Assembly (NCBI GenBank): GCA_963668025.2
Contig: CAXXTH010000010.1
Coordinates: forward strand, 608,001-672,000
DNA from: Candidatus Hydrogenedentota bacterium
GTDB lineage: Bacteria > Hydrogenedentota > Hydrogenedentia > Hydrogenedentales > SLHB01
DNA length: 64,000 nt
Direction: 5' to 3'
Position numbers and translations under genes: made by a program. Of the stretch, positions 35,183 through 50,252 are shown piece after piece (position 1 is the stretch's first letter; each line of letters opens with the position of its first letter). The notes beneath the pieces are model-generated. The model was not told the origin of the DNA. It saw nothing but the letters and a program-made list of their open reading frames with translations, and did not search any database.

Positions 35183-35230
35183 AGGTGGTGGGCGGTACAG
35201 GACTCGAACCTGTGACCCCCTGCGTGTAAG
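35183..35230 (-). repeat. att site: 48-bp duplicate of tRNA-Val 3' half
   Basis: AGGTGGTGGGCGGTACAGGACTCGAACCTGTGACCCCCTGCGTGTAAG identical to 50173-50220. Confidence 0.97.
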
Positions 35231-35330
35231 TGAGTTATTGTTTGTATATTCGGTGTAACAACATGTTAGGGCAATATGCACAAAAAGCCTTGAGTTCCCT
35301 AGAGTTAAAGCCTGTTTTGTATTTTACCTC

Positions 35331-35359
35331 TTGACACATATCGTTACATGGTGTATGCT
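35331..35359 (+). promoter_or_regulatory. Integrase promoter
   Basis: TTGACA-N17-TATGCT. Confidence 0.7.
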
Positions 35360-35361
35360 TG

Positions 35362-35390
35362 AAAATGATCCATGAGTGATCCATGGATCA
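35362..35390. repeat. Putative integrase arm-type sites (TGATCCAT repeats), left
   Basis: AAAATGATCCATgagTGATCCATGGA matches 50082-50107. Confidence 0.7.
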
Positions 35391-35430
35391 GAATGCGGTT
35401 GATCACCGCGAGGCGAGAAAGGAAACAACC

Positions 35431-36708
35431 ATGGGAAAGGTCAACTTAACGGCAAAGGCAATTCGAGACGCCCTGCCTACTGAGCGGGAATATACGCTCA
35501 CCGATCTCGTTGTCCGAAACCTGGCTTTGCGTATCCTGCCTTCCGGCCAAAAAATCTACACGCTTTTATATATGGATCATGCAGGCCGCCGTAAACGCCT
35601 TACGCTTGGCAACGCAGATGTTCTGTCCGTTGCGCAGGTCCGAATACTCGCCAGGCAACGCCAGGCAGATATCGCGAAGGGCATTGACCCTTCCGAGGAA
35701 AAGAAAAAAGCCAAGCGCAATCTGACATTGCGGCAGTTCATGGACGAACACTACACGCCGTGGTTACTCAGTAATCTTAGAAGCGGTAAAGAGGTTGATA
35801 AATCTTTGCGGCGTGCGTTCAAGAGCCTTATGAATATGAAGTTGAGCGCCATATCCGCATTTCATGTTGAAAAAGTACGCGCCGAACTCACGAAAGCAGG
35901 CAAGCGCGTGGCCTCAAATCGATATAGTGCGCTATTTAAAGCTCTCGTAGCCCGCGCCCATAAATGGGAATTCCTCGAAACGAATATCATTGCCGGTAAA
36001 GTATCTCGCCACAAAGAAGACCGGGGGCGTGTTCAATATCTAGATGCGGCAGAAGAGGCCCGCCTGCTCGAAGCGCTCGACCGCAGGCAGAATAAGCAGA
36101 GGGAAGAACGCGCCCGTATGATTGCGTGGGCACAACAACGGCATCTCCCGACGTTGCCCGATCTGAATGGGCTCATCTATACCGATTATTTGAAACCGCT
36201 CATACTTGCAGTGTTGTACTCCGGTATGCGCCGGGGCGAAGCGTTCAGCCTGCTATGGTCTGATATCAATTGGGAACAGAATACCATCACCATCCGCGCG
36301 GAGTCCGCGAAGTCGGAGAAAATGCGGCATATCCCTATGTGCGCCGCGCTACGGCAGGTGTTGGAGCAATGGCAAGCCCAAAGTATGGGGCAAGGTCTTG
36401 TGTTTCCAAGCCTCAAGACTGGCGGACGCCTCGACAATATTCAAACATCATGGGAGCGTCTCATAAAGGATGCGAAGATTGAAGGCTTTCGATTCCATGA
36501 TCTGCGGCATTCGTTCGCATCAAGGCTGGCCATGGCGGGCGTGGACTTAAACACCATTCGTGAATTGCTGGGGCATTCGGATCTGAAAATGACTCTGCGA
36601 TATGCGCACCTATCACCGGCCCGGACGCAAGCGGCGGTGAATGTGCTCGACCGAATTGACAACGCGATCTCGTTCCCTGGCGTGAAGCAGGAAGGTAGCA
36701 CCTCATGA
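35431..36708 (+). CDS. int: Tyrosine integrase with N-terminal arm-binding domain
   Basis: SGMRRGE, K, FHDLRH, LLGH..MT.RY catalytic motifs; AAGGA RBS. Confidence 0.96.
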   Translation: MGKVNLTAKAIRDALPTEREYTLTDLVVRNLALRILPSGQKIYTLLYMDHAGRRKRLTLGNADVLSVAQVRILARQRQADIAKGIDPSEEKKKAKRNLTLRQFMDEHYTPWLLSNLRSGKEVDKSLRRAFKSLMNMKLSAISAFHVEKVRAELTKAGKRVASNRYSALFKALVARAHKWEFLETNIIAGKVSRHKEDRGRVQYLDAAEEARLLEALDRRQNKQREERARMIAWAQQRHLPTLPDLNGLIYTDYLKPLILAVLYSGMRRGEAFSLLWSDINWEQNTITIRAESAKSEKMRHIPMCAALRQVLEQWQAQSMGQGLVFPSLKTGGRLDNIQTSWERLIKDAKIEGFRFHDLRHSFASRLAMAGVDLNTIRELLGHSDLKMTLRYAHLSPARTQAAVNVLDRIDNAISFPGVKQEGSTS

Positions 36709-36855
36709 AGCGAGCGAACCGCCACGCCACGAACACGGTTTCGGACGGGTGCTTACACCACTCGCGCGAAGATCGTTGCTCTACGGCCATCCTACGAAGC
36801 CGTTTCGAGGAAGACGGGGTGCTATGTAATACCCGAATAAAGGAAGGAGTCCATC

Positions 36856-37245
36856 ATGTACAGTAATCGCCATAATCGAAAGGCGGAAAGAGAAGCCGCT
36901 TACGAAGCTATTCCTATGGAATCGACACCCCCCGCCCAATCCCTGTCCGCCGCCAAGCGCCTCCCTCGATACCTAAAAATTGGGCAGGTAGTAGCAGAAT
37001 ACGGCTTGTCTCCGCAGACATGGCGGAGGCTGGCGTTGGCGGGAAACATCACGGCGGTAGAACTCAAAAGCAACGAACGTGGTATATGCGGGAAAACCCA
37101 CTTTGCGTATGATCGCAGTAGCATTGAGGCGTATCTACAAGAAAATATTGTGCGTCCGCCAATACGAATCGATGATCGGCAAGCCGACAGAGAATGGCGT
37201 AAACGCTACGCGGCGGAAAACTACAGGAATGGAGGTAAAGGGTGA
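36856..37245 (+). CDS. HTH DNA-binding protein (excisionase-like)
   Basis: YLKIGQVVAEYGLSPQTWRRLALAGNI...DRSSIEAYL; AAGGAG RBS. Confidence 0.7.
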   Translation: MYSNRHNRKAEREAAYEAIPMESTPPAQSLSAAKRLPRYLKIGQVVAEYGLSPQTWRRLALAGNITAVELKSNERGICGKTHFAYDRSSIEAYLQENIVRPPIRIDDRQADREWRKRYAAENYRNGGKG

Positions 37246-37428: not shown

Positions 37429-37860
37429 ATGAACGCAGAGGCAGAAACCAAGCAGCCCGTAGGGGACCAACGGCCAATCACGGTTCATATCCCATCGCAT
37501 CTTCAAGGACGCCCCATCCATGTTTTCGCAATGGACGAAGGTGAACCAGACACATGGGACGTTATGCCAGACAAGCGCCGCTATGAACAGCAGTGCACGG
37601 CATGCGGAGCGGGCATGTTATTCAATCCCGTCCCGTACGGATTTTGTCCATTTTGCGGCGAGCCGCTAGACATTACTCTCGCAAAAGAGACCACGTGCGA
37701 TGATAATCTGCTTGAGGCCCGGCAGGAAGGTATGCGTGGATGCCTTATGTATATGGGCAACATCATGACGATGTTGAACCAAAGTTTTTATGACAACAAA
37801 CCGGATAGCGATGTAATTGCCGCTCTGCGCGAAGATTTACACAGGGAGTGGGATGTCTAA
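37429..37860 (+). CDS. Hypothetical zinc-ribbon protein
   Basis: CTAC...FCPFCG; AAGGA RBS. Confidence 0.6.
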   Translation: MNAEAETKQPVGDQRPITVHIPSHLQGRPIHVFAMDEGEPDTWDVMPDKRRYEQQCTACGAGMLFNPVPYGFCPFCGEPLDITLAKETTCDDNLLEARQEGMRGCLMYMGNIMTMLNQSFYDNKPDSDVIAALREDLHREWDV

Positions 37861-37968
37861 TTTTTTGGGCAGCGGGCTTGATCACCCGCGCGCGCGTGCG
37901 GGCACTGGCGCTACTCCTTTCGGCCCGGTGTCCGTATGCGGCCCACCTCGAATGGAGGATACCTTCTA

Positions 37969-38178
37969 ATGCCGAATTCATTGGCTTTGGCCGTCCTTGG
38001 TGTCATTTATGCTCACCCTGAGACTTTCGATTACTTCGTGAAGACTGGAAATCTTGTCGTCGAGAAACGAAATCCTGATATGCAGATCGATGTCTTCACA
38101 CTCAACGAAATCCGCCATGTTGCGAAGTGTGTCCGAGAGTACCGCAACAGGACTGCGCAGCCCGGCGTGACCCTCTGA
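37969..38178 (+). CDS. Hypothetical protein
   Basis: GGAGG RBS, co-oriented with neighbours. Confidence 0.45.
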   Translation: MPNSLALAVLGVIYAHPETFDYFVKTGNLVVEKRNPDMQIDVFTLNEIRHVAKCVREYRNRTAQPGVTL

Positions 38179-38192
38179 AAGGAGGTAATGAA

Positions 38193-38399
38193 ATGCGCAA
38201 AGCAAAATCAGCGCCATCTGAAAAGCCTAATAATTACTACGGGCTTAGGGGGCTAAAACTCACCCCACAAAAACGCATACTGGCTAAAATGGCCGTGCAT
38301 GCCGACGAGCTTATGGGTGCATGCACGGACATAAATACGGACACGAAAATTGTACGGCGACACATGAGGGCGCTGAATCGTCTACTGGCCCAAATCTGA
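38193..38399 (+). CDS. Small basic hypothetical protein
   Basis: AGGAGGT RBS before MRKAKSAP. Confidence 0.55.
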   Translation: MRKAKSAPSEKPNNYYGLRGLKLTPQKRILAKMAVHADELMGACTDINTDTKIVRRHMRALNRLLAQI

Positions 38400-38458
38400 C
38401 GGGCTGGCGTGTGCTGGCCCGCTTTTCGTGGCTCTGAATGGTGTAAGGAGCGTATGAC

Positions 38459-38818
38459 ATGAACCAAGAAACCGCCGAACGCGTGAAGTATGGGTATCTA
38501 GTAGTTGCCGCTTTGCTTTTTGCGCTATGGACTATAACTGGTTGTGGAGAAAAACAGTCATTACCGAGTAATGATCCATGGGCAACGCCAGGACCAAAAA
38601 TTATTACTCAACAGGAATATAATCAAATTACGCCAGGCATGGCGAAAAATGAGGTGATCCGTATAATTGGAAGCCCAGGGAAAGTACAGATGAATATCAA
38701 TGATAGTGACGGTGAAATGCTTGTCTTGATCTGGGATAATCCAGATTTAGGCTATGCTTGTGTAAGGTTTCAAAATGGAATAGCGCAAGATAAGAACTGC
38801 ATGGGCTTGGAGTGGTAG
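38459..38818 (+). CDS. Lipoprotein, BLIP/DUF3862-like
   Basis: Lipobox-like ITGC; ITQQEYNQITPGMAKNEVIRIIGSPG...V.FQNG motif. Confidence 0.7.
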   Translation: MNQETAERVKYGYLVVAALLFALWTITGCGEKQSLPSNDPWATPGPKIITQQEYNQITPGMAKNEVIRIIGSPGKVQMNINDSDGEMLVLIWDNPDLGYACVRFQNGIAQDKNCMGLEW

Positions 38819-39250
38819 GCGTGTGCGGTATCGCATATCCGCAACCAGCTAGGCCGCCGTAACCTGGACGTACCACAACGAGCGGCGCTGGCAGTGCGGC
38901 TGGAAAAGGTGCTCATGAAAGAGGCGCACGTACGTCAAGTATCCGCCTTAAAACAAAACAAAGAAAATCAAGAAAATACCGTTCCCGTCCATGGACGGGA
39001 ACGGAAGGATGTCCGCGAAAACGAAGCATCCGAGCAAGCAGCCAAAGCGTTTGACGTGAGCGGAGCAACAGTACAGCGGGCGAAGAGAGTAGAGAAAAAC
39101 GCCCCGGAGGTATTTCAGGAAATGGCAGACGGAAAAATATCCGTGCGGGCGGCGGAGGGACTGAGCAAGCTCCCGAAAGGCCAGCGCAAGGAGGCGCTGA
39201 AACTAACTACGCCACTTCCTGGACTTTCCGCCACGAACGCACTATACTGA
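38819..39250 (+). pseudogene. 5'-truncated ParB-like phage protein fragment
   Basis: HIRNQLGRRNL..QRAALA lies upstream of any start codon; AAKAFDVSGATVQRAK...GKISV.AA HTH. Confidence 0.6.
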
Positions 39251-39370
39251 TACGCAGACTTTAGGGTAGCCGAAAGCCGATTGCAACGGCCCGGCTCACG
39301 GGAACCGCCACCCCGGCAGCACTCCGCTAAGGGTGGCGGTTCCCGGCCCGCAACAATAGGAGTGCGAGTG

Positions 39371-40012
39371 ATGGAAGCCTACCAAATAAGCGAAGCACGC
39401 ATAGCCATTATCCACGAACGCGAGACAGCCATCTTTGAAAGCCTTGACGAAACGCCACGTAGTGCGAATATCGATATTGAAGAGTTGGCGGCATGGCTTG
39501 CGAAAGACGCACTCAACCAGATATCTCGATATGGACGTGGCTTCAATTTTAATGTAGATTTATGGGACGAAATTGAACGCGGGACATTCCAGCCCCTTCA
39601 CTACAAAGATGGCATACCAGTGCTTTGCCGCGCCGATGTACGGCGATTCTGCCGCGCCCATGGGATAAGTATTCCGCCCGTGTTTGTCGAAGATCCTATG
39701 CCACGGGACGAGATTATAAAGGAACTGATCAGGAAGGGATTCAAGCCGGACACAGCAAAACACAGCCATGATAGAGCCCGCGCAAGTGGTATTCTTACGG
39801 ACGATACTCCCGCATCCGAAGTAATGAGGTGGATAGACAGAAAGAACCCTCGAAAATACCAACATACCAAGAAACGCAAATGCGCCAGTTGCGAAGAGCT
39901 GAAACCAATCAGCGAATACAACGGCGACGGCCATACATGTAAGTCCTGCCTAAAATTGCGACCCCGCCCCGCCCAAACGCTGGCCGAAGCCTCCGCACGG
40001 GAGCGTCGTTAA
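39371..40012 (+). CDS. Hypothetical protein with C-terminal CxxC-CxxC
   Basis: AGGAG RBS; CASCEELKPISEY...CKSC. Confidence 0.6.
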   Translation: MEAYQISEARIAIIHERETAIFESLDETPRSANIDIEELAAWLAKDALNQISRYGRGFNFNVDLWDEIERGTFQPLHYKDGIPVLCRADVRRFCRAHGISIPPVFVEDPMPRDEIIKELIRKGFKPDTAKHSHDRARASGILTDDTPASEVMRWIDRKNPRKYQHTKKRKCASCEELKPISEYNGDGHTCKSCLKLRPRPAQTLAEASARERR

Positions 40013-40214
40013 TACCCGCCATTTCCCGAATCTGCACCTTGCATATCACTGAATAGCGCAGGGACAAAAAGGGGACATTTAAGTTTTTTATCCTAACAAA
40101 CCCTAATAAATATCGCAAAACACACCGTTTTTATTGGACATTCGCGTACCCCTTCAATATCCGTGGTAACATAATTACAGAAGTTGAAACACGGAATAAC
40201 ACAGGAGCAACGCG

Positions 40215-40466
40215 ATGACAAAAAAAATTCACGGACTTAGCCCAGAAGTGCGGCGCGAGGTTTGTATGCTCTCATTGCAAGACCTCGCGAAGGTTCTGCA
40301 TAGAAGCTATGGATATCTCCGCCGTCGTGTAATGGAAGGCCCACTCCCCGGGCGAATGCCCCTACCGCAATACACAAAAATCGGCAACCGCATTCTATTC
40401 AGACTTGAAGACGTTCAGGAATATATCAACGAACACATAGTGCATCAGCACGTGGTGGGCGAATAA
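40215..40466 (+). CDS. AlpA/excisionase-like HTH protein
   Basis: LSLQDLAKVLHRS...KIGNRILFRLEDVQEYI; AGGAG RBS. Confidence 0.75.
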   Translation: MTKKIHGLSPEVRREVCMLSLQDLAKVLHRSYGYLRRRVMEGPLPGRMPLPQYTKIGNRILFRLEDVQEYINEHIVHQHVVGE

Positions 40467-40469
40467 TAC

Positions 40470-40850
40470 ATGACTGAGCCCATCGACATTAACCGTGCCC
40501 GCCGACGGAAACGCCCTGGCCCAGCGGATTCAATGGAATTCCGCCGTTCCGAGTTATGTACGGAGTACAGCGGTTCGCGCGTGTTTGCAAATAAGTGCGG
40601 CTCGTTTGTGCGGTTCGTGAAAGGCCTCGGGTGGCTCCGTTGGACTGGAACGCATTGGGAAGAAGATCCCGAACGCGTGCGGTGTATGTGCATCGAGGTT
40701 GTTGGTCAATATTTCCGCGATACAGCCGGACAGTACGCGCGTGATGGCGATGACGCAGATTTAATCAAGCATATATTGGCATTTGCCAGAAAGTGCGAAA
40801 GCGCCAGTACTGTTGATGCAATATTGCGCATCTGTGAGGGGTATCTTTAA
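40470..40850 (+). CDS. N-terminal part of D5_N domain of P4-family primase/helicase
   Basis: VRFVKGLGWLRWTGTHWEED motif; TAATG overlap with next ORF. Confidence 0.7.
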   Translation: MTEPIDINRARRRKRPGPADSMEFRRSELCTEYSGSRVFANKCGSFVRFVKGLGWLRWTGTHWEEDPERVRCMCIEVVGQYFRDTAGQYARDGDDADLIKHILAFARKCESASTVDAILRICEGYL

Positions 40851-41893
40851 TGAAGATTGACGAATTTGATAGCCACCCATTTCTTGTAAATTTTAAAAAT
40901 TGCACGCTCGACTTCGAGCAGATGCAGGGTGAACTTCCAAAAGTAAAGCAGCACTGCCAGTCGGACTATCTGACTAAGTGCTTACCTTACGATTACAATG
41001 AAGGCGCACCGGCGCACCTTTGGGAGAGCGTCATCGAGCACGCCATACCAAACCCAGCCACACGTCGATTTCTTCAAAAAAGTCTCGGTTACTCCGTGCT
41101 CGGCACCTGCCGCGAGCAGTGCGCGTTCATAGCTTATGGGCCACCCGCGACTTGCAAGAGCACCGTTTTCGGAACCGTACTTCGTCTTCTGGGCCCATAC
41201 GGATCTAGATGCGCCACCCAGGCGCTATTAGAAAAGCCCGTGAATGGCGGAGCGTCACCCGACATTGCAGATCAGCGAGGCGTCCGGTTTCTCCTTGCAA
41301 GTGAAACGCCGGAAAATGGGCGATTAAATGAATCTCTGTTTAAAGAGCTCACTGGCCAGGACCGTATACGAGCGCGTCCGCTGTATAAACAAAGTATTGA
41401 ATTCGAGGCCACCGGGAAGTTGTGGATTTTGACCAACCATAAACCCGTAATCCGCGACACCACCGGAGCAGTATGGAGACGTATACGGCTTATCCCATTC
41501 GATGTTGTTATCCCAAAAAAAGAACGGGATAAAACCTTACCGGACCGGCTCTCGCGAGAATCAGAAGGTATTCTCCGTTGGCTCGTTGAAGGGGCGTGTA
41601 TGTATATGAAAGAAGGACTTGAACCTCCTGAGCAAGTCGAAGTTGAAACGGACAAATACCGCGAACAGCAAGACACGATTGGGCGCTTTATATCCGAATG
41701 CACGATCCAAGAGCAATACAAGCAGGTGTCGAAAACAGCGCTTTACGAGGAATACGAGAGATGGTCGCGTGACAGTGGGGAATATGCCGTGAACAAAAAA
41801 AAGTTCGGCGAGTACCTGTTTGAGCATGGGTTTGATGATTACAAGGGCACTGCCGGAAAGCGCTTCTGGCTAAACATAGGATTGATGGCATGA
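40850..41893 (+). CDS. P4-family/D5-like SF3 helicase (phage/plasmid primase C-terminal region)
   Basis: FD..P.LVNF.N, YGPPATCKST Walker A, ASE, KELTGQD.I.ARPLY, TNHKP, WRRI.LIPF. Confidence 0.9.
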   Translation: MKIDEFDSHPFLVNFKNCTLDFEQMQGELPKVKQHCQSDYLTKCLPYDYNEGAPAHLWESVIEHAIPNPATRRFLQKSLGYSVLGTCREQCAFIAYGPPATCKSTVFGTVLRLLGPYGSRCATQALLEKPVNGGASPDIADQRGVRFLLASETPENGRLNESLFKELTGQDRIRARPLYKQSIEFEATGKLWILTNHKPVIRDTTGAVWRRIRLIPFDVVIPKKERDKTLPDRLSRESEGILRWLVEGACMYMKEGLEPPEQVEVETDKYREQQDTIGRFISECTIQEQYKQVSKTALYEEYERWSRDSGEYAVNKKKFGEYLFEHGFDDYKGTAGKRFWLNIGLMA

Positions 41894-41991
41894 GTGGCGG
41901 GAGAGGCGCGTGTTTACATAACTTTCTATATAAATTCCCTTCGCGTAAGGAACTTTATAAAACACGTGCCACTTATGCCACCTTCGCCACT
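41884..41991. other. Putative replication origin (convergent iterons around an AT-rich core)
   Basis: Three 9-bp-phased (T/A)GGC units, AT-rich spacer, three 9-bp-phased GCCAC units. Confidence 0.6.
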
Positions 41992-42017
41992 CACAACCAA
42001 AAAAAAGGAAACTTACC

Positions 42018-42572: not shown

Positions 42573-42614
42573 CGTAACCCATTGGTTAGGAACCAAATTT
42601 AAGGAGAAAAACGC

Positions 42615-42902: not shown

Positions 42903-43185
42903 TATCACCTCGCTTCGGATGTATATGCGGGCGCATCGAGGGCTTCACGAAGCCGCTGAAATCGTCCTAGACGAGGTGGAGGCCATCGCGCCCCAGGAGA
43001 TCGCCCGTAGCGCGGCGCGCATTCGCCGGGCGCTTACCAGGCTGGCAACCGCCACATTCAGTGAGGCCGTCCGCGGTGCCCAGCGGTGCCCAGCGGGCAA
43101 TCGTGAGGCAAAAGCAGTCTTGGCGGTTGACGGCTTCAAATGGATTGAGCACCGCCGTGGAAATAAATCCCGAGGTGGCGCATGA
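42880..43185 (+). CDS. Hypothetical protein
   Basis: Overlaps both neighbours; ATGA coupling to terS. Confidence 0.55.
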   Translation: MAKKPHPDITSLRMYMRAHRGLHEAAEIVLDEVEAIAPQEIARSAARIRRALTRLATATFSEAVRGAQRCPAGNREAKAVLAVDGFKWIEHRRGNKSRGGA

Positions 43186-43757
43186 GACGACTGACCGCCA
43201 AGCAAACTGCATTTGTGCAGCACTACTCCATCACCGGCAACGCCACCCAATCCGCCAAGATGGCAGGCTATTCCGGCTCCACCGGCACGCTCAGCGTAAC
43301 CGGCGCGGAGAACCTAAGAAAGCCTAGTATTCAAGAGGCGCTCAGGTCGTTAACCGCACCACTCACGGACAAATTGAATACCAACAGAGCGGCGCGCGTG
43401 GCGTATTTGAGCGCTGTAATGCGAGGCGAAGTGGCCGAAGACGATGGCGCTATTCCCGCCGTTGCCGTCCGCGTGAGGGCTTGCGAAATTCTGGCCCGCA
43501 TCGAGGGTGACATGGTCACTCGCATCGAGGCGACGGTCCAGCGTGCGCCCGATCCGCAGTTCGACCTATCGAAGCTCACACGCGATCAAGTGGTGCTTGT
43601 GGAGTGCCTGCAAACCCGGGCATTGGTGAATCCTGATGAGCATAGTCGCTATCAGATGGCAATGCTACAAGAGGAATTCGACAGATGGCCGGATGAACGG
43701 AAGTTGGCTATTTTTGTGAAGAAACCCGAAATCGGCGAAACTACGAAGGAGAATTGA
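43182..43757 (+). CDS. terS: Terminase small subunit
   Basis: LTAKQTAFVQHY...NATQSAKMAGYS...GAENLRKPSIQ (Terminase_2-type motif). Confidence 0.9.
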   Translation: MRRLTAKQTAFVQHYSITGNATQSAKMAGYSGSTGTLSVTGAENLRKPSIQEALRSLTAPLTDKLNTNRAARVAYLSAVMRGEVAEDDGAIPAVAVRVRACEILARIEGDMVTRIEATVQRAPDPQFDLSKLTRDQVVLVECLQTRALVNPDEHSRYQMAMLQEEFDRWPDERKLAIFVKKPEIGETTKEN

Positions 43758-44296
43758 TGATGGCTTATGATGAAAATGGAACACGAATTGATCTACCACC
43801 GGTACAGATGCCGCGTTTCGTGAATGATACCGCCCGGCTTGTGGATGAACAGGCCGAAAAAGCGGGTGTGGCGCTTCACCCTATTCAAAGAATGCGCATC
43901 GTTGAAGATGTTCACGCCTATTGCCAGCAGAAAATCGATCATGGGCGCGCGCCTAGCCCGCAAGAATTCCACGACGCCATTCGTCGCGAAATTTGGCAAC
44001 TGACCCCGGTTGGCCGCAACGTGACGGAAGGCATAAAGCAGCGGCAAGCCGCCGCCGCCCAGGTCGCGGCCAAGCAAGCCGCCGATGCCGCCGCGAAGGC
44101 TGCCGCCGGGATTGAAAACGAAAAACAGGCGTTCCTTGCCAGTGCCCGGCGGGTATGGCCCGGTACTGATACGGATTTTGCCCAGAAAGCTGATGCACTT
44201 TGGGCTGACGAATGCGAGCGCCGCTGTGTCGCGCAGATGACCGGCGCGCAGGCCTGCCCCGCTGGCATACGCCGTGCTTACAAGGGGGCAATCTGA
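43757..44296 (+). CDS. Hypothetical protein with Ala/Gln-rich helix
   Basis: AAGGAG RBS, TGATG coupling at both ends. Confidence 0.6.
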   Translation: MMAYDENGTRIDLPPVQMPRFVNDTARLVDEQAEKAGVALHPIQRMRIVEDVHAYCQQKIDHGRAPSPQEFHDAIRREIWQLTPVGRNVTEGIKQRQAAAAQVAAKQAADAAAKAAAGIENEKQAFLASARRVWPGTDTDFAQKADALWADECERRCVAQMTGAQACPAGIRRAYKGAI

Positions 44297-44676
44297 TGAA
44301 ACCTCTCGATTTTGATGATAAAATGTGGCGTGTTATACGTCAAGACGTATGTGGGATCCTTGATGCTGACGCGGCAACCTTGTTTGGGTGTCGGCGCAAA
44401 GACATTTGGAAAGTTGTAACTGAGTATCCTGACCTTTTTGGGCCAGACATGTGTATCCGCCTCTCTGATAAAGAGCGCATCGTAATGGCCAAACAGGTCG
44501 GAATACGTCCGAAAGACACCATGCTTTTTTTCGTTGGCCACGGTGCCATTTATTGCGCACCATATATCGAAACCAAACGCGCACAGACCATCTACCGCAC
44601 CCTTGTGGAGCACTTCACAATTACCGGTATCGCTGAACTAACCGCCCGGCTGGCCGAAGCAACGAAAGGGGTATAA
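44296..44676 (+). CDS. ORF6N-like DNA-binding protein
   Basis: ILDADAATLFG...V...PDLF..D....LS..E resembles the ORF6N consensus. Confidence 0.6.
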   Translation: MKPLDFDDKMWRVIRQDVCGILDADAATLFGCRRKDIWKVVTEYPDLFGPDMCIRLSDKERIVMAKQVGIRPKDTMLFFVGHGAIYCAPYIETKRAQTIYRTLVEHFTITGIAELTARLAEATKGV

Positions 44677-44679
44677 CGC

Positions 44680-47484
44680 ATGGAACTTGGAACCTTAGCC
44701 ATTCGTTTTCAGTCTGACGGCCTAATCCAACTCAATAACGACATGTCGAATCTCCGCACGCAGGCAAATGCGAACTTCGGAGAGATCACCCGTACCGTGG
44801 GCGCAGGCATGACGGCGGCGGGTGCGGCCATCACCGGCGCGCTCGGGCTGTCTGCGAAGGCCGCCAGCGACTTTGGTGCTGGCTTGGCCAATCTTGGTAC
44901 GCTTGGCGTAACGAACCTGGATGAAATGGGTGAAGCTGTCCTGGATTACTCGGTCGCTATGGGGCAGGACGCATGCCAAGCAAACGAAAATCTATATCAA
45001 CTCGTTTCGCGCGACGTTCCAAAAGATAATTTGATCGATGTTCTGACCGCATCCGCTAAAGGCGCGGCAGTAGGCGTAGGCACAGTGAACGACTCGCTTG
45101 TGCTGGGCACTTCAGTATTAAACAACTACTCCCGGGACATGGTAAAAGGCGCGAATTACACAGAAAAGTTTGAGCAAGTCATGGGAATCGCGGCGTCTGC
45201 CATTCAAACAGGCGCTACCACGATGGGAGAGTTGGGCACCACGATTGGGCGGGTGGCCCCTATCGCGTCTAAGGCGGGCATATCCCTGGAAGACCTATTC
45301 GCATCGGTTGCGACGATTACATCCACAGGTACACAGACTAGCGAGGCGGTGTCCGGGCTGAAGGCCGCGATCTCGAACATCATATCTCCGACCAGTGAGG
45401 CCACAAAGGTTAGCGAGGCGCTTGGGCTTCAATTTGATGCGGCGGCCATCAAGTCTAAGGGATGGTCGGGATTCCTGCAAGAGCTGCAAACCAAGGTCAC
45501 TGAGGGCGTACCGAAACTCGGGCAGTATAAAGCGCAATTGCAGCAACAGGCCCAACAGATGGGGCTTACCGCCGAAAAGACCAAGGAATTGCGCACTCAA
45601 TTCAAGTCGCTTGAGGGCGTCTCAAATGACTCGCTCACGGTATTTGCCAACCTATTCCCCAGCGTTGAGGCCTTAAACGCAGCGCTTGCGCTCACGTCTG
45701 AAAGCGGGGCCAAGAAGATGGTTGCCGCTCAGAAGGACATGGCAAACGGCATGGAATTACTGAACGACCGCTACGGTGAGTGGGCAAAGAATAATCCCGA
45801 GCTTGCGTTCAAGCAGTTGAAGGCGGCCACGGCGGCGCTGGCGATTTCCGTTGGGCAGCTATTACTACCGGCGCTCACGAAGATAGTGAATGTCGTCCGG
45901 CCAGTGGTGAATGCGTTCCGAACATTCACGGACCACACAGGGGCGGCGGGCACAGCTATTGTATCGTTTATTGGTGGTGTCGGGTTACTCGGTTTTGCGT
46001 TTGGGCCAGTGATTTATTCCGCAACGAGCCTCGTTAGCGCCCTACGTCTTATTGCGCATCCGTCGCTGATACTGTCGCTGGGGCAAGCCGCCACCGGCGT
46101 GAAATCCATCGGCGTAGCAGCCACGGCGGCGCGTATTCCGATGCTCGCAATGGGCGGCAGCTTGACTGCAACAGCGGCGACCGCAGGCGCGCTTGCAATC
46201 GCCATAGGGGCGGCTGGAACATTTATCGCTGCCGATATCGTGATGTTCAAGAAGTGGCGCGATGCAGTTGAGCAGCGCAAAGAATCAGAGCAAAAACTTC
46301 AGGACAAGATCATTGAGCGCGCCAAGCAGCTCGAGGCCCAGGGCGTGTATATCGATTGGGCAGCCATGAAGGAAATGACCGCCGATCAGCAAGTCATGTA
46401 TATGAACGACCAGAAGGCAGCACAAGAAAAGCAACAATTCCAAGACTGGATGACACGCACTAACCAGAAAGCACTCACCGAAGAACAAGACGCCCAGCGC
46501 CACAACATCCAGCTAAACTGGAACCTAACCAGCGAAGAGGCCTACAACGCCTCACTGTCTGACGCTGACGCCGCCACGAAACTGAAGCTAGTCCAGGCCG
46601 ATGAAACGCACACGCAGCTTATCCTTGAACAACTCGGTATCCGCACAGCCGAAAGCCGCACACAGTTAAGCGAGCAAGCGCAGGCCGCCATTGCGGCTGC
46701 CGAACAGCAGAAGGCGGCAACTGAGACGGTGCTACAGTCACTTGACAAAAACATAGGCGCGATTACAGAACTCGGAACCGTTGCAGAGGCCACCGGAGAC
46801 GCCACGAAGACCGCCACGGAAACTATGAAGGACGGCTTCCAGGAAGCATCCAAAGATGTTCCGAAATACTGCAAGATCATCACGAGCGACAAAGACGGCA
46901 TCGTGATTATCAAGAAGTCATCCGCAGACCTGCGAGAAGAGATCGGCAACGTGCCCGGCGCTATGCGCAACGGCATGAGTGAGGCGGCGAAATACGTAAG
47001 CCAGTATTGCGCAGATATGAACGCCAGTATCCAAGAGGTGATCGACAAACTCAACTCCATAGACCCGTCCGTGCGGCATTCGCCCTCCATAAACGACCGT
47101 ATCGAGGTGGGCTTATCCCAGATGGGCGGCCTATTCAATTCCGCCTTGGACGGGATCACCTCGAAGTTCGCGAGTTCACGGAACACCATGGCCAGCCTGG
47201 CGGCGTCACTATCCGCCATGATGGGCAGCATAGGCTCTACGGGCTACACGGTGCGCAACGGCGACGTGGTGAAATCATCCAGCGCTACAGGCACAACGAC
47301 CGCCCCGGGTGCCGAAGCCCCGATATCGCCCGTTGGCAACACAAACCCTATCGGCATATACCCACCACAGGTGACCGTGAACATCAATCACCCGGTGCTG
47401 CATAAGGACGCGGATATCAACGTGTTGTTATCGAAGATGGGGCAGATGCTCCGCGCGCAGAAACTCGCTAAAGGGGTGGGGTGA
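44680..47484 (+). CDS. Phage tail tape measure protein (TP901 family)
   Basis: MELGTLAIRF N-terminus, TTMGELG..IG.VAP.A..AG.SLE, SEAVSGLKA core, Ala/Gly-rich helical body, HSPS motif. Confidence 0.9.
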   Translation: MELGTLAIRFQSDGLIQLNNDMSNLRTQANANFGEITRTVGAGMTAAGAAITGALGLSAKAASDFGAGLANLGTLGVTNLDEMGEAVLDYSVAMGQDACQANENLYQLVSRDVPKDNLIDVLTASAKGAAVGVGTVNDSLVLGTSVLNNYSRDMVKGANYTEKFEQVMGIAASAIQTGATTMGELGTTIGRVAPIASKAGISLEDLFASVATITSTGTQTSEAVSGLKAAISNIISPTSEATKVSEALGLQFDAAAIKSKGWSGFLQELQTKVTEGVPKLGQYKAQLQQQAQQMGLTAEKTKELRTQFKSLEGVSNDSLTVFANLFPSVEALNAALALTSESGAKKMVAAQKDMANGMELLNDRYGEWAKNNPELAFKQLKAATAALAISVGQLLLPALTKIVNVVRPVVNAFRTFTDHTGAAGTAIVSFIGGVGLLGFAFGPVIYSATSLVSALRLIAHPSLILSLGQAATGVKSIGVAATAARIPMLAMGGSLTATAATAGALAIAIGAAGTFIAADIVMFKKWRDAVEQRKESEQKLQDKIIERAKQLEAQGVYIDWAAMKEMTADQQVMYMNDQKAAQEKQQFQDWMTRTNQKALTEEQDAQRHNIQLNWNLTSEEAYNASLSDADAATKLKLVQADETHTQLILEQLGIRTAESRTQLSEQAQAAIAAAEQQKAATETVLQSLDKNIGAITELGTVAEATGDATKTATETMKDGFQEASKDVPKYCKIITSDKDGIVIIKKSSADLREEIGNVPGAMRNGMSEAAKYVSQYCADMNASIQEVIDKLNSIDPSVRHSPSINDRIEVGLSQMGGLFNSALDGITSKFASSRNTMASLAASLSAMMGSIGSTGYTVRNGDVVKSSSATGTTTAPGAEAPISPVGNTNPIGIYPPQVTVNINHPVLHKDADINVLLSKMGQMLRAQKLAKGVG

Positions 47485-47905
47485 TGGCGGATAATGCGTG
47501 GATCGAGTGGAACGGCGATGAATGTCTGATTCGGATCAAAAACGCCACCAAAGACAGCATCAAAAAGATCGCGCTGGCCGTCGAAGCACAGGCCAAGGCG
47601 AATATTGAGGAGCCGTTCCTGCATAAGCAAGGCCGTAAGCGCCGCGATGGCCGCGACGCACACGGGCGGTTTTTGGGTAGAGGCGCAAGTGACGAATCCG
47701 ATCTCATGCGCAGCCAGATCGACACGGGGGCGATGATCAATTCCACACGCGCCGTGTTTGACGGCTTGCCTTCCGGCGCAATGGCTGCCGTTATATCACC
47801 CCAGGAATACGCCCCGTACCAAGAAGCTATCCGCCCGTTCCTTATGCCCGCCGTTGATGAGGTCGTTTCAGATAAAGCGGAAGGGATCATTAAGAACCAG
47901 TTTAA
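47481..47905 (+). CDS. HK97-gp10-like putative tail component, 3' end interrupted by IS
   Basis: IDTGAMINS, EYAPYQE, RPFLMPA motifs; native last codons at 49602-49620. Confidence 0.7.
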
Positions 47906-49596
47906 CCTAAAAAAGGCAGTAGGAACTTGCTTTGGGATTTTTCCAGCCCAATTTTGTAAAGAAATAACTGTCCTGTCCCGCTCTTTACGTTGGCGCCGGC
48001 AGCAGGTTGGGGGTGGCCAGCGGCCTTCCCTCGAGTATTTTGGCGAAGATCCGGCTGAGGATCGTCCGCCATCGTTCGTTCCAGTTCAACTGCCGCGCAG
48101 TTGCTTTCATCTCCAATAAAAAGGCGTTTACGGATTTCAGAACTTGTTCCATAGCATGTCCTTGCGCATGCACGGGGGTGATGGTGAGCGTGGTTTGGCC
48201 TCCGTGGCGGGTCTGCTGTCCCACGCCGTAGAGCAGCAGAGGGCGGCTCGTGATCGCTTCGGCGTGGCGCTCCGGAATCGCCAAGCGCACGTACAAAGAC
48301 CACCAATTGTAAATCAGGGCTATGATTCGCGCCATGATTTGGCAGCGCTTCATATCGTGGGTGGTATACCCGCCCCACCCCCACTGGTTTTTCTGTTCAT
48401 CGTAGATGTTTTCCGCATCGCCCCGGTCGCGATAATGCTGGGCCAAGGCCGATAGGGGGTCTGTCAGCGAAGTGGCCAGCAGCGCGTATTCATACTGCTG
48501 CACGGCTCCCGCTTGGATCTCGATGAGCTGTAGTTGGGGGGAGGGGTCAGGCAATAGCGGCTCCGTTTCCAGAACGATACTCCCTTTGAGCTTGCGCCGC
48601 AGAACGATTACCCGGCGTTTGCTCGTCCATCCCATAAGCTCCAGACGGTCTTCCAAACCTTCCCAGCCTTGGCCTGCTGGCGTCCAGTCCTTAGAACAAA
48701 AGGCCTGCTGGATAAGCCGTTTCACGTTGCTGGTCTGCCGCAATTTGAACAGATAGGGCACTCCGCGCGCTTCGGCTTCGCTCATGTCGCGTTCGTTGCC
48801 GAAGGCGCAGTCGCCGCGAATCATGCCCGGCCAGGCCGCGCGCGGCAAGCCATCGAGAAAATGCCACAATCCAGGCATGGTGTATTTCGCCGCCGTCTCG
48901 TTGCCCGGCCGGACTTCCACGTCCAGCACCAAGCGCGTGTTCGCCATAAAATAGGTATGCAGCACATGAGAAGGACGGCCCTGTTTCGCCGGATTGTAGC
49001 CCAGCACGGCCCCTTCTTGATGGCCGAACAGGGGCTTCACGCTTGTATCCACGTCCAAAATCCAAGGCTCATAAAGCAACGGCTCATAACAGCGGCGCAG
49101 GTGCTTCTGTAGCCAGCCCGCGCAGGCTTCCCCGTCCGCCAGTATAAATGCCCGCCGCGCCGAGGAGGCGCTCATGATCTTGCTCATACCCAGCAAGCCC
49201 GGGTTCACCGCGTCGTAACGGACCGCGTCAATGTGCGCATAGCGGGTGTGGCCCGCCAGCACTGATAAAAATAGCGTGCCCAGCACATCCCTCTTGCGCG
49301 GCGCATTATTGCTGGCGTACGCCAGCGGACAGTCCTCCACCCACGCTTCAAAAAGCTCCGCCGTCTTGAGGAAATCGATAAAGAACGCCAACTGGCCAAA
49401 CGGCGTCGTTGCCGCCTCCCGGTCCCATTCCACATGCACCCGGCCCCCGTAGCTATCTACGAAAATCGGCGCCTCCAAAGACAACCATTCCTCCTCTCCC
49501 AATGGGGGAGCATCTTGCTGTTGCGATTCTGTTTCCATGTTCTTTATCTTGAACTACTTCCTGCTCGACACTCAAGATTCAACTGGCGTTTTTAGG
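47906..49596 (-). mobile_element. IS1380-like insertion sequence (1691 bp)
   Basis: Imperfect terminal IRs CCTAAAAAAGGCAGT / CCTAAAAACGCCAGT; 5-bp TSD TTTAA at 47901-47905 and 49597-49601. Confidence 0.88.
47985..49538 (-). CDS. tnp: DDE transposase (IS1380-like)
   Basis: LDVDTS, GYNP.K.G, IRGD, YRDRGDAEN.YDEQK. Confidence 0.9.
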   Translation of the reverse strand: METESQQQDAPPLGEEEWLSLEAPIFVDSYGGRVHVEWDREAATTPFGQLAFFIDFLKTAELFEAWVEDCPLAYASNNAPRKRDVLGTLFLSVLAGHTRYAHIDAVRYDAVNPGLLGMSKIMSASSARRAFILADGEACAGWLQKHLRRCYEPLLYEPWILDVDTSVKPLFGHQEGAVLGYNPAKQGRPSHVLHTYFMANTRLVLDVEVRPGNETAAKYTMPGLWHFLDGLPRAAWPGMIRGDCAFGNERDMSEAEARGVPYLFKLRQTSNVKRLIQQAFCSKDWTPAGQGWEGLEDRLELMGWTSKRRVIVLRRKLKGSIVLETEPLLPDPSPQLQLIEIQAGAVQQYEYALLATSLTDPLSALAQHYRDRGDAENIYDEQKNQWGWGGYTTHDMKRCQIMARIIALIYNWWSLYVRLAIPERHAEAITSRPLLLYGVGQQTRHGGQTTLTITPVHAQGHAMEQVLKSVNAFLLEMKATARQLNWNERWRTILSRIFAKILEGRPLATPNLLPAPT

Positions 49597-49659
49597 TTTA
49601 AAGCGGACGGCATAGATTAGCCCGACACCCGGGCGGCCCGTGATGCTACCCGGTTTTAT

Positions 49660-49700
49660 GCCCCCAGCGGTTCGCCCCCAGTGGGCCGCTGGGGGCTTTT
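49660..49700 (+). terminator. Intrinsic terminator closing the element's late operon
   Basis: GCCCCCAGCGG...CCGCTGGGGGC-TTTT. Confidence 0.75.
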
Positions 49701-50081
49701 GGTGTTTTCTAGGGGATATCCGCCGCACACTTGATCCACTATTGGGTTTATTTTCGGGCTGAATCGAACGGGTCTAAGTGATTAAATATAAACACGTTAC
49801 GTGCATTTTACGCCCTAATCCCGAACGCCTCGGCGGCAATCCGAGATGGGAATGTAGACTTTGGTGCAAGGTTGCACTAAGGTGCCATTGCCACAGTGAA
49901 GCTGGCGGCGCTGTACGCACCGGCGGCGCGGGAGAGGATGGAGGCGACGCAAGCCAATCCAGGCGAAAAAGTAGGAGCTAAGGCTGCTGCAACCTTGCAG
50001 CAACGGATTGACCCCAAAGAAATAACCTATCACTTCGCCCCCCTCACTGGTGAGTAGAATCCACACACCAGGATTCCTTTC

Positions 50082-50107
50082 AAAATGATCCATAACTGAT
50101 CCATGGA
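50082..50107. repeat. Putative integrase arm-type sites, right
   Basis: AAAATGATCCATaacTGATCCATGGA. Confidence 0.7.
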
Positions 50108-50121
50108 AGAATTTTAACGAT

Positions 50122-50162
50122 AAAAGGCCTCAAGGAACGACTTTTGTAAGTCCTTGAGGCCT
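50122..50162 (-). terminator. Hairpin/terminator downstream of tRNA-Val
   Basis: 12-bp stem AGGCCTCAAGGA/TCCTTGAGGCCT with short T run on minus strand. Confidence 0.6.
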
Positions 50163-50175
50163 AGCGCTTTAAAGG

Positions 50176-50252
50176 TGGTGGGCGGTACAGGACTCGAACC
50201 TGTGACCCCCTGCGTGTAAGGCAGGTGCTCTAACCAACTGAGCTAACCGCCC
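50176..50252 (-). tRNA. tRNA-Val(TAC)
   Basis: GGGCGGTTAGCTCAGTTGGTTAGAGCACCTGCCTTACACGCAGGGGGTCACAGGTTCGAGTCCTGTACCGCCCACCA; cloverleaf with anticodon TAC. Confidence 0.98.

Follow-up and report, generated by a model that had tools for sequence, protein, structure and literature searches.

A probable PICI-like phage satellite with its own tape measure and tail completion genes in a Candidatus Hydrogenedentota bacterium

We analysed a window of 64,000 nt (contig CAXXTH010000010.1, positions 608,001-672,000, assembly GCA_963668025.2, Candidatus Hydrogenedentota bacterium) and propose that the element at window positions 35183-50220, here called E1, is probably a PICI-like satellite, slightly damaged now, that redirects packaging through its own small terminase subunit (TerS) and brings its own tail-lumen pair, a tape measure protein (TMP) and a tail completion protein (TCP). 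None of its ORFs, the largest unassigned one being 243 aa, has a Pfam or PHROG match to capsid, portal, TerL, tube or lysis genes, and judged from its gene content E1 appears to lack the genes for an autonomous virion. An earlier note on this DNA had proposed a PICI-sized satellite with its own TMP and tail-completion protein; the backbone and a rearranged, conserved tail-gene block support this in part, but its novelty was overrated.

E1 is integrated site-specifically at tRNA-Val. Its borders are 48-nt direct repeats, 100% identical, with attL at 35183-35230 and attR at 50173-50220, the latter inside tRNA-Val(TAC) (50176-50252, minus strand), the sole tRNA of the window, whose 3' part it covers. 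Subtraction of one repeat and of a 1,696-bp insertion sequence (IS) from the 15,038 bp leaves a net size of ~13.3 kb. Paired TGATCCAT octamers stand on the plus strand in the left arm (35359-35387, the 29-nt repeat D2, overlapping the int start codon) and again in the right arm (50079-50107). Two copies of the octamer lie near each end of both E1 and E2, a second copy of the element in the same host genome, and four of the six plus-strand copies in the 64-kb window are at the E1 ends; we take these pairs as likely candidates for arm-type Int sites. The contigs of the public runs X1 and X2 contain no attL-attR joint. All native genes are on one strand (+), with int at one end, and the terS-to-TCP operon is closed by an intrinsic terminator (49660-49705, +) with a stem of 16 pairs, 12 of them GC (49660-49696), and a T-rich tail, the strongest among 25 terminator-like sites (shuffle mean 19.2). 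The clean borders, the net size and the closing terminator had all been read in this way in the earlier note, and they stand; of its SF3 helicase plus ori, the helicase is confirmed, but neither an ori nor iterons were found when looked for in E1.

The backbone opens with a tyrosine integrase with an arm-binding domain (35383-36708, +; Phage_integrase, PF00589, 1.5e-30; Arm-DNA-bind_3, PF13356, 7.1e-15), which shares 97% amino acid identity with that of E2. The two HTH/Xis-like genes predicted along with it are supported by profiles: the gene at 36856-37245 (+) matches phrog_66, labelled 'excisionase and transcriptional regulator', at 2.6e-8, its Pfam match to HTH_17 (E 4.3e-4) being below cut-off, and an AlpA/Xis-class HTH_17 regulator upstream of the helicase (40215-40466, +) matches PF12728 above cut-off (1.3e-7). 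Small accessory or regulatory genes at 37429-40012 (+) have weak Pfam and PHROG matches only; they include a 143-aa Zn-ribbon-like ORF, a 119-aa putative lipoprotein (38459-38818; so named from a lipobox recognised visually), a 118-aa ParB-HTH-like ORF (38894-39250) and a 243-aa ORF (39281-40012) with HTH-like Atlas leads scoring below 0.9, and PADLOC matched none of the six ORFs scanned there. The helicase is spread over two ORFs (both +), a 126-aa N-terminal D5_N piece (40470-40850; D5_N profile positions 3-78), 71% identical to the start of an intact 478-aa paralogue on contig C6, and a 347-aa ORF (40850-41893) with the D5_N remainder and the SF3 helicase (DUF5906, Pox_D5), whose ATG overlaps the preceding stop codon. 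The split is a 1-nt deletion relative to the intact paralogue; across 39298-42006 an independent contig from run X1 has 0 differences. E1 showed no primase domain. Downstream of the helicase no unknown ORF exceeds 184 aa: the ORF of that length (42018-42572, +), with a duplicated Cys/His motif recognised by eye, has no Pfam, PHROG or PADLOC match and leads in Atlas to unnamed clusters only, and two small overlapping ORFs of 95 and 101 aa (42615-43185, +), without a family at E <= 0.001 in Pfam, PHROG or PADLOC, lead into terS with a 4-bp overlap.

From terS to the TCP gene the ORFs are joined by stop/start overlaps and one 3-bp gap, a close packing already described and here read directly; their translation is coupled, and Shine-Dalgarno motifs are present. 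TerS (191 aa, 43182-43757, +), rightly named before, matches Terminase_2 (1.5e-15) and phrog_51 (1.3e-20), the family match being confined to residues 1-87, and its residues 3-86 match the TerS structures 3zqp/2cmp in the PDB at 1.3e-5. Outside the host genome its nearest relatives share 39-52% identity over 32-55% of the protein, and TerS combines an SF6/SPP1-type N-terminal DNA-binding domain with a unique C-terminal half. ORF A (179 aa, 43757-44296, +) is an orphan all-helical protein (AF2 pLDDT 78.8), present in E1 and E2 only among 5.8 billion proteins and 1.84 billion representatives. Its model has no fold match at E <= 0.001 in PDB or BFVD; thus the capsid, portal or TerL fold that the earlier note had asked after among the unknown ORFs is not seen in ORF A, the one modelled. 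ORF B (126 aa, 44296-44676, +), previously called ORF6N-like, resembles ORF6N only weakly, and we describe it as a divergent ORF6N/KilA-N-like protein: its Pfam ORF6N match is below cut-off (E 0.0066), in BLASTP it matches a true ORF6N protein of E2 at 6e-8, and an ORF6N gene on L011 shares 30% identity with it. Neither ORF A nor ORF B has a TAC or hub match among profiles or, for ORF A, among the folds of PDB and BFVD.

The assignment of the 934-aa TMP (44680-47484, +) on first reading is confirmed: the protein matches PhageMin_Tail at 1.1e-24 and its best PHROG at 1.2e-35, 14 of its 15 PHROG matches are named tape measure, and it is full length relative to phage homologues, with 48% identity to an IMG/VR siphovirus over residues 3-932. 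The TCP gene (HK97 gp10/Neck1 class; 47484-47905, +) starts on the TMP stop codon in both E1 and E2. Its putative identity rests on one PHROG match (phrog_5, 'tail completion or Neck1', E 1.7e-5) and on the synteny of phage homologues; the phage homologue falls in phrog_5 too. A PDB profile search gave no match, the AF2 model (pLDDT 49) is too poor for use, and in the alignment TCP has a 23-residue basic insertion missing from phage homologues. Seven codons before the TCP stop lies the 1,696-bp IS (47906-49601, minus strand; transposase 47985-49538, DDE_Tnp_1_4 8.6e-19; 29-nt terminal inverted repeats), which has displaced the last codons and the stop to 49602-49620 (+), read by eye across the IS. 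This IS is an insertion foreign to native E1: the host genome has 21 further full-length copies and none at the matching site in E2, the IS-less joint 47899 -> 49596 is present in runs X1 and X2, and the IS-less TCP reading ends like the intact TCP of E2. The gp10-like gene of the earlier note therefore stands, with its last seven codons severed. With the helicase frameshift and the IS in the last TCP codons, the E1 copy is slightly damaged and may not be fully autonomous.

The same terS-A-B-TMP-TCP block is found in E2, 400 kb away at tRNA-Val(GAC), a heavily decayed copy riddled with IS elements (three), with a truncated TerS and without a helicase. Between the two copies amino acid identity is 94% for TMP, 82% for TCP, 78% for ORF A and 45% for ORF B, and the TMP ORF is intact in both and 934 aa long in E2 also. 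The dN/dS check that had been suggested for TMP points to purifying selection (0.19), and the other values are 0.19 for int, 0.25 for TerS, 0.43 for ORF A, 0.23 for ORF B and 0.19 for TCP; depending on the gene, dS lies anywhere between 0.15 and 2.2, and this implies exchange with unseen relatives. The capsid-less block is older than the E1/E2 split and was kept under purifying selection. In a host of a different family of the same order, a third, divergent element (L137) has int, a Toprim-D5-SF3 helicase, a MuF-like gene and an HTH_23 protein, then a TMP that runs off the contig end, with an HTH/TerS-like gene directly adjoining the TMP. Conservation of the gene set elsewhere, which the earlier note had asked about, thus extends to the block of E2 and the divergent L137, but the block was found in only one of 135 genomes of the phylum and in none of 80 TMP loci and 49 helicase loci of IMG/VR.

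Foreign TMP and TCP, together with ORFs A and B, might instead poison siphovirus tail assembly or DNA delivery, E1 then being a defence or decoy island that remains chromosomal or moves in some other way, without travelling in particles itself. PICIs, prophages and P4-like satellites commonly interfere with tail assembly according to the available text of PMC11364771, PLE11 Rta targets the helper TMP (PMC12987554, available text), ORF A is an orphan without a structural-protein fold, and the search of the host for a helper siphophage, as the earlier note had advised, found no resident helper prophage. We nevertheless consider this unlikely, because a TerS whose DNA-binding domain is intact serves packaging and not defence, a full-length TMP of exactly 934 aa in each copy points to a role as structural ruler, and PADLOC has 0 matches among the ten ORFs scanned; besides, defence and transfer are not exclusive, and PLE does both.

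The phages closest to E1 in TMP and TCP are the metagenomic siphoviruses L043, L046 and L047 of IMG/VR and a prophage fragment of genome G128 (TMP 37-48%, TCP 38-47% identity to E1). Five phage loci hold both genes (L043; L044; L046, whose contig is also that of L022; L047; and contigs C455 and C580 of G128). In all five, TCP is found 2.4-2.7 kb upstream of TMP, separated from it by major tail and chaperone-position genes, the canonical order in L043, L046, L047 and G128 being TCP, a 141-146-aa gene, the major tail protein, two chaperone-position genes, TMP and Dit. E1 and E2 have TMP then TCP, the reverse of all five, so that the block must have been rearranged, as deletions alone cannot produce this order. 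The earlier note's view that no deletion scar is visible and that E1 is not a simple deletion remnant is thereby strengthened, and the complete prophages with the same junctions that it had asked about were not encountered among the phage relatives. L043, L046, L047 and G128 have complete structural modules, without E1-type TerS, helicase or integrase. Four related phage records have neither a Terminase_2 TerS nor a match to the E1 TerS, and the TerS and the tail genes may therefore point to different helpers. Of the 71 ORFs examined from this lineage, TMP and TCP alone have counterparts in E1 and E2, and 69 have no homologue in either. Elsewhere in the genome, on contig C17, there are two weak matches of other phage-lineage ORFs. 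It appears from these comparisons that TMP and TCP were captured selectively from a siphovirus lineage and, since G128 belongs to the host's family, that the donor lineage infects this family.

These comparisons bear on whether E1 is a decayed prophage, that is, a temperate siphovirus with its head, tube and lysis genes deleted and bounded now only by its integrase. TMP, TCP and TerS are phage genes, both E1 and E2 contain IS elements and broken genes, the genome is IS-rich (with the 21 other copies of the E1 IS), and no helper is known, all of which such decay would accommodate. Yet we regard it as quite unlikely. The colinear order expected of a siphovirus prophage, intact or decayed, is absent along with nearly the whole lineage gene set, the terS-to-TCP genes are still coupled, the capsid-less block predates the E1/E2 split with its 934-aa ORFs intact, each copy occupies a tRNA-Val gene of its own, and the int/helicase backbone is missing from the related phage records. 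An integrative mobilisable element, mobilised for example by conjugation, with a phage tail fragment as passive cargo is very improbable: int and D5-type helicase islands without phage genes do exist on C6, C17, C18 and C19 of the same genome, but purifying selection in two diverged copies would be unexpected for passive cargo, the cargo is fused with terS in one coupled operon ending in a strong terminator, and no relaxase or oriT-type gene is among the Pfam matches.

Returning to the PICI-like satellite, the late operon of E1 would hold, instead of capsid-remodelling genes, a matched siphovirus tail-interior pair, accompanied by the orphan helical ORF A and a divergent ORF6N-type DNA-binding protein. 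We infer the following course. Infection by a siphovirus of the TMP/TCP donor lineage would lead to excision and replication of E1; its TerS would recruit the helper TerL and bring satellite DNA into helper heads; its TMP would nucleate tails using the helper's tip complex, tube and terminator, with the cognate TCP capping the TMP N-termini and holding the packaged DNA end; and the product would be chimeric particles with a satellite-made tail lumen. Such an exchange might fix the length of the tail, evade tail-assembly interference or impose it, or get round entry blocks directed at the helper TMP. In 80alpha/SaPI1 necks, as described in the available text of PMC11661146, a monomeric TCP caps the DNA end and joins the three TMP N-termini in a beta-sheet, and this contact would explain why TMP and TCP travel together; E1 also points to the pair, whose members touch each other and the DNA end in those necks, as a swappable unit. 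Still more tentatively, and we would not count on it, E1 and E2 may stand for a family of capsid-less satellites, from a phylum with hardly any cultured members, in which the whole siphovirus tail interior is exchanged for satellite products, namely a TMP trimer and a single TCP that has a satellite-specific basic insertion, caps the TMP N-termini and holds the DNA end. If so, the satellite would govern the length of the tail, the docking of the DNA end and which proteins enter the next cell first; PLE chimeric tails would gain their first counterpart among siphoviruses, a satellite that swaps TCP would be known for the first time, and ORF A would be a candidate factor excluding the helper's own TMP.

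Lastly, E1 needs to be placed among known satellites. Until 2025, phages were told from satellites by tail genes. The PICI core set has five components (de Sousa et al., NAR 2023, PMC10085698, available text), and the E1 backbone appears to hold four of them: an integrase, a primase-replicase module of the primase-helicase class (the gene split by a frameshift), TerS and, as candidates for the regulator (an alpA, merR or stl homologue), HTH_17 proteins and the gene with the phrog_66 match, judged on Pfam and PHROG profiles. For the fifth, a capsid morphogenesis gene, no E1 ORF has a head-related Pfam or PHROG match; according to the same text this gene is optional, Type B PICIs being without one. 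Tail and holin genes are, again in the available text of that source, forbidden components of the SatelliteFinder PICI model (PMC10085698), and E1 has TMP and TCP. E1 therefore has a PICI-like backbone and is outside PICI by the SatelliteFinder definition; the model would presumably reject it, and satellite finders forbidding tail genes will miss E1-like elements. With PICIs and SaPIs, as far as the available sources describe them, it shares its size, the terminal position of the integrase, a putative regulator of the AlpA/Xis class, a gene of the primase-replicase class, a TerS opening the hijack operon and the one-strand organisation. The cf-PICIs are said to have putative tmp genes (Extended Data Fig. 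10, PMC12987554, available text); they build their own capsids with portal, capsid and connector genes, whereas E1 has none of these.

That TMP-encoding satellites are 'only sparsely described', as the earlier note had it, overrates the novelty, as PLEs (PMC12987554) and EPIPs (PMC12822802) are already published. PLEs of Vibrio cholerae contribute a TMP, TAC and hub to chimeric tails, and in virions the PLE TMP takes the place of the helper's, transduction depending on it (Mathur, Boyd et al., Nature 2026, PMC12987554, available text). By analogy the E1 TMP may play such a role. PLEs, to the extent covered by that text, and E1 are both integrated, lack tail tube and fibres and have their own TMP beside helper-independent small genes. 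However, the PLE helper is a myovirus, ICP1, and PLEs bring TAC and baseplate hub genes as well, whereas E1 has a siphovirus-type TMP and TCP and no recognisable TAC or hub; the backbones differ, the TerS of E1 being of the Terminase_2 type, and so does the host phylum. EPIPs of Mycolicibacterium have a TMP and altered tail length in particles (Qian et al., preprint 2025, PMC12822802); like E1 they are small satellites (~11 kb versus ~13 kb) with TerS and TMP, but their reported genes include those for a serine integrase, head-to-tail adaptor, stopper, scaffold and major capsid protein (PMC12822802), in contrast to the tyrosine integrase, D5/SF3 helicase and TCP of E1, which is without head or connector genes. 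Compared with these systems, E1 would extend tail manipulation on three counts: the helpers would be siphoviruses, the backbone is PICI-like and capsid-less, and the phylum is a remote one, known mainly through metagenome-assembled genomes.

The candidate satellite E1 is bounded by perfect 48-nt direct repeats at 35183-35230 and 50173-50220 of the window, the right copy overlapping the 3' part of tRNA-Val(TAC) (50176-50252, minus strand), the sole tRNA in the window. The earlier note, made from the sequence alone, had described a cleanly bounded element at tRNA-Val of about 13.3 kb net with all native genes on one strand, and each of these points holds: the repeats are 100% identical, every native gene between them in the ORF list lies on the plus strand, and subtraction of one repeat and of a 1,696-bp insertion sequence (IS) leaves about 13.3 kb. 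Paired TGATCCAT octamers just inside both ends of E1, and likewise of a second copy, E2, are likely arm-type integrase sites. The IS (47906-49601) is inserted 7 codons ahead of the stop codon of the gene for the tail completion protein (TCP), and has 29-nt terminal inverted repeats and a DDE transposase (DDE_Tnp_1_4) gene on the minus strand; its 21 other full-length copies in the same genome, at identities of at least 98.9%, together with 4 partial matches, look like a recent expansion. Left of attL, the GC content at 33500-35500 is 0.47-0.50 compared with 0.55-0.60 around it; the ORFs there (33007-34392 and 34439-34897) are without Pfam match, and the stretch may be the remnant of an older island.

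The genes of E1 encode, in order, a tyrosine integrase with an arm-binding domain, an HTH_17/excisionase-like protein, several small products without assignment, a second HTH_17 protein, a D5_N/SF3 helicase, three small ORFs without known family, the small terminase subunit (TerS), ORF A (179 aa), ORF B (126 aa), a tape measure protein (TMP) of 934 aa and the TCP. The landmarks named before, TerS, the 934-aa TMP, a gp10-like gene and a terminator, were all recovered: residues 1-87 of TerS match Terminase_2, phrog_51 and a solved SF6-type TerS DNA-binding domain; the TMP matches PhageMin_Tail (1.1e-24), with 14 of its 15 PHROG matches named tape measure; the gp10-like gene, the TCP, matches phrog_5 'tail completion or Neck1' (E = 1.7e-5); and a terminator-like site at 49660-49696, the strongest of the region, closes the operon. 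The tight spacing claimed from terS to the gp10-like gene was confirmed by reading the start and stop codons directly; from 42880 to the end of the TCP gene every start codon, each preceded by a purine-rich Shine-Dalgarno-like motif, overlaps the preceding stop or sits 3 bp beyond it. The presence of TerS argues against the idea that E1 is a defence or decoy island without transfer of its own, which we consider unlikely, while noting that a defence role as such would be compatible with a satellite.

Two gene-level claims stood only in part. An 'SF3 helicase plus ori' had been proposed; the helicase is there, split by a 1-nt deletion, and no iterons or ori were found in E1. The downstream helicase piece retains an ATG on the stop codon of the upstream piece, and the region is identical in an independent contig of sequencing run X1; a natural two-gene arrangement was ruled out, since the paralogue on contig C6 is one intact 478-aa ORF, relative to which E1 has the 1-nt deletion. 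The 'ORF6N-like' gene, ORF B, is indeed related to ORF6N, but only as a divergent relative. It starts with its own ATG on the ORF A stop codon, and this ATG, its Shine-Dalgarno sequence and its ORF6N likeness led us to reject a G/GT chaperone frameshift pair as the explanation for the ORFs upstream of the TMP gene. ORF A has no relatives among 5.8 billion proteins or 1.84 billion representatives, and its predicted structure is all-helical (pLDDT 78.8) and matches no fold in PDB or BFVD at E ≤ 0.001; as far as could be tested, with ORF A as the one modelled, no unassigned ORF was seen to fold as a capsid, portal or TerL, the result that the earlier note had named as counting against its reading. 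No unassigned ORF downstream of the helicase exceeds 184 aa, and PADLOC gave no match among the 10 ORFs of E1 scanned. A 184-aa ORF (42018-42572) carries a Cys/His pattern twice (CxxC, then HxHGW, then HC) and could represent a zinc-ribbon module that was duplicated; it is without family match in Pfam, PHROG or PADLOC, and remote-homology leads were uninformative for it and for a 243-aa ORF.

The two tail proteins deserve separate comment. The alignments of PHROG profiles with the TMP begin near position 200, as if its N-terminus were truncated; this was ruled out, as the phage homologues begin at the same residue. The TCP was assigned, with modest confidence, from a single PHROG match and the synteny of its phage homologues; its fold model is poor (pLDDT 49) and a profile search of PDB gave no match. 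In both E1 and E2 the TCP contains a 23-residue basic (Arg/Lys-rich) insertion (47640-47710, residues about 53-77) that is missing in all three phage homologues aligned.

E2 lies on the same contig as the window (C10:608001-672000), about 400 kb off at C10:1045174-1059968 (positions 2174-16968 of the fetched locus L009), in tRNA-Val(GAC) and flanked by 48-nt repeats with 94% identity. The gene order and coupling of the block are alike in the two copies. Amino acid identity between them is 97% for the integrase (dN/dS 0.19), 94% for TerS over residues 33-187 (0.25), 78% for ORF A (0.43), 45% for ORF B (0.23), 94% for the TMP, which has 934 aa in both (0.19), and 82% for the TCP, intact in E2 at 148 aa (0.19), with dS ranging from 0.15 to 2.2 depending on the gene. 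The dN/dS check that the earlier note had suggested for the TMP thus came out in favour of purifying selection. Taken with the spread in dS, these ratios indicate that the capsid-less block is older than the E1/E2 split and has been under purifying selection, and the spread itself points to exchange of modules between the E1/E2 block and unsampled relatives. Both copies are damaged: E2 has acquired three different IS elements, one of which took out the N-terminus of TerS, and it is missing the helicase. Next to int, E2 also has a bona fide ORF6N/Rha-like gene, and near attR one of the HTH_3 type.

Outside this genome the nearest TMPs are 35-48% identical, and the best relatives lie on the IMG/VR siphovirus contigs L043, L044, L045, L046 (the same contig as metagenome locus L022) and L047. 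The TMPs of the phages measure 788-1148 aa, against 934 aa in E1. All of the contigs just named except L045 also carry a TCP homologue (38-47% identity), its gene lying 2.4-2.7 kb upstream of the TMP gene in four of four cases; L043 has, in this order, the phrog_5 gene, 141-aa gene, major tail protein, two genes in chaperone position, TMP, Dit and fibre. The same TCP/TMP arrangement, with head genes upstream, is spread over two contigs of G128, a genome from the host's own family, indicating that this phage lineage, hereafter the donor lineage, infects that family. E1 and E2 reverse the order of TMP and TCP relative to the phages, and the genes abut, which cannot be obtained by deletions alone. 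When 71 donor-lineage ORFs were compared with the host genome by tblastn, homologues were found in E1/E2 for the TMP and TCP only, beside two weak matches on C17 unrelated to either element; no E1-type helicase, TerS or Terminase_2 turned up in four phage records, one of them 98% complete. Judged by such sequence comparisons the backbone of E1 is foreign to donor-lineage phages, and different phage types may have been the source of its TerS and of its tail genes. That E1 is a decayed prophage seems quite unlikely to us, given the foreign backbone, the reversed gene order, the two insertion sites and the purifying selection on the block. Selection on the block, together with its operon structure, makes it very improbable that E1 is an unrelated mobilisable island carrying the tail genes as passive cargo. 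Separately, several (pro)phage TMPs in the host's bacterial family (L136 on G128:C580, L138, L139 and L140) match the E1-type TMP in its C-terminal half only (profile positions about 385-968) and differ in their N-terminal parts, so TMPs in this host group appear modular.

The satellite reading calls for a helper, and the search of the host for a helper siphophage, proposed in the earlier note, found none resident. The genome (93.75% complete, 24 contigs) has no match to Phage_capsid, Phage_portal, Terminase_6N, TerL_ATPase or the donor-lineage major tail protein; it holds two TMPs in total, those of E1 and E2, and a single above-threshold match to Terminase_2. Donor-lineage contigs L043, L045, L046 and L047, even the 98%-complete record, give no match to Phage_capsid (PF05065) or Terminase_2 (PF03592), and their head and packaging genes belong to other or undescribed families. 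Searches with these two profiles, being blind to the donor lineage, cannot exclude a donor-lineage helper in the genome, and the tblastn search with the 71 lineage ORFs is the better control. The suggested check for attP circles was likewise negative: neither an attL-attR nor a circle joint occurs in Logan contigs of four runs, in which rare excision would not be visible. An IS-less joint seen in runs X1 and X2 may derive from E2 or from another strain; run X4 shows the same strain, at low depth, and does not count as independent. In X5, a wastewater metagenome of a different study, pieces 91-96% identical to the xis region, helicase, TMP and post-IS region weakly hint at a further relative of E1.

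As to conservation of the gene set elsewhere, the block is kept in E2; of the 135 genomes of the phylum a single one was found to have the exact block terS-A-B-TMP-TCP, and none of the IMG/VR loci examined has it. A third, distant element, L137, lies on a 10.3-kb contig from a genome of another family in the same order. Its integrase gene is truncated by the contig start and is followed by genes for a DUF1580 protein, an 846-aa Toprim-D5_N-SF3 primase-helicase, a 184-aa ORF, a Mu-F-like head morphogenesis protein, a 113-aa ORF and an HTH_23 protein; immediately after this last gene comes that of a TMP, 35% identical to that of E1, which runs past the contig end. Among the 135 species genomes of the host phylum, 133 of them in one order, profile matches to the TMP occur in 11, to the TCP in 2 and to TerS in 5. 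A TMP-alignment search of genome contigs gave 8 distant loci (TMP identity 29-33%), to which the other E1 proteins had a single match, a 35% identical integrase in L021, and a metagenome search with the TMP gave 21 loci, all phage-like or too short. In IMG/VR, the TMP search gave 144 loci, of which 80 were kept, TerS gave none, the TCP alignment gave 4, every one an already known phage, and the helicase alignment gave 49, none with an E1-like TMP, TerS or TCP. Among the weak TerS matches is the 2,661-bp contig L206 (G076:C275), which is too short to judge; it has a 184-aa TerS-like gene (32% identity to E1 TerS across 107 residues) adjoining an integrase, and may represent a further type of satellite in the same order. 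The host genome itself has four more islands with related integrases (33-80% identity): L010 (C6), with tRNA-Pro, an intact 478-aa helicase and a 2,161-aa ORF; L011 (C18), with tRNA-Asn, an ORF6N gene and an integrase match in two pieces, the gene perhaps being broken; L012 (C19); and L013 (C17). Three of the four have HTH_17 genes and none has TerS or a TMP.

We propose that E1 probably integrates, regulates, replicates and redirects packaging in a PICI-like way. Heads, tip complex, tube and terminator would come from a helper siphovirus of the donor lineage; the satellite would contribute TerS, to direct packaging, and the TMP-TCP pair, to form the tail interior. The pay-off might be control of tail length, protection from an interference with the helper TMP that comes from the satellite itself, or escape from entry blocks targeting the helper TMP. 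In a structural study of the 80alpha/SaPI1 neck (PMC11661146), a TCP of the HK97-gp10 class lies inside in single copy, closing off the end of the DNA and joining the N-termini of three TMP copies in a beta-sheet; such contact would explain why the TCP travels with the TMP, and by these roles E1 would encode exactly both proteins that fill the tail lumen.

How does E1 compare with known satellites? In the definition of de Sousa et al., 2023 (PMC10085698), a PICI has five core components and tail genes are 'forbidden'; E1 appears to have four of the five and carries tail genes, and so is PICI-like, yet no PICI by that definition. Full-text literature searches, within the terms used, found no reported satellite with a TCP plus a TMP. 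Tail-manipulating satellites as such are known: PMC12987554 describes Vibrio cholerae PLEs whose own TMP, chaperone and baseplate hub go into chimeric tails, with PLE transduction requiring the PLE TMP and, in PLE11, a further protein, Rta, blocking the TMP of the helper, and the legend of its Extended Data Fig. 10 mentions putative tmp genes in PLE-like elements and cf-PICIs; Mycolicibacterium EPIPs combine TerS and TMP with longer tails (PMC12822802). With TMP-bearing satellites now known, E1 is less surprising than it would have been before 2025. The observation behind the tail-remodelling satellite of the earlier note is borne out, and the interpretation is partly supported; E1 would be a variant of the TMP-encoding, tail-manipulating satellites already described. 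What sets E1 apart is the combination of a capsid-less PICI-like backbone, a siphovirus-type TMP, a co-captured TCP whose insertion is satellite-specific, and the host lineage.
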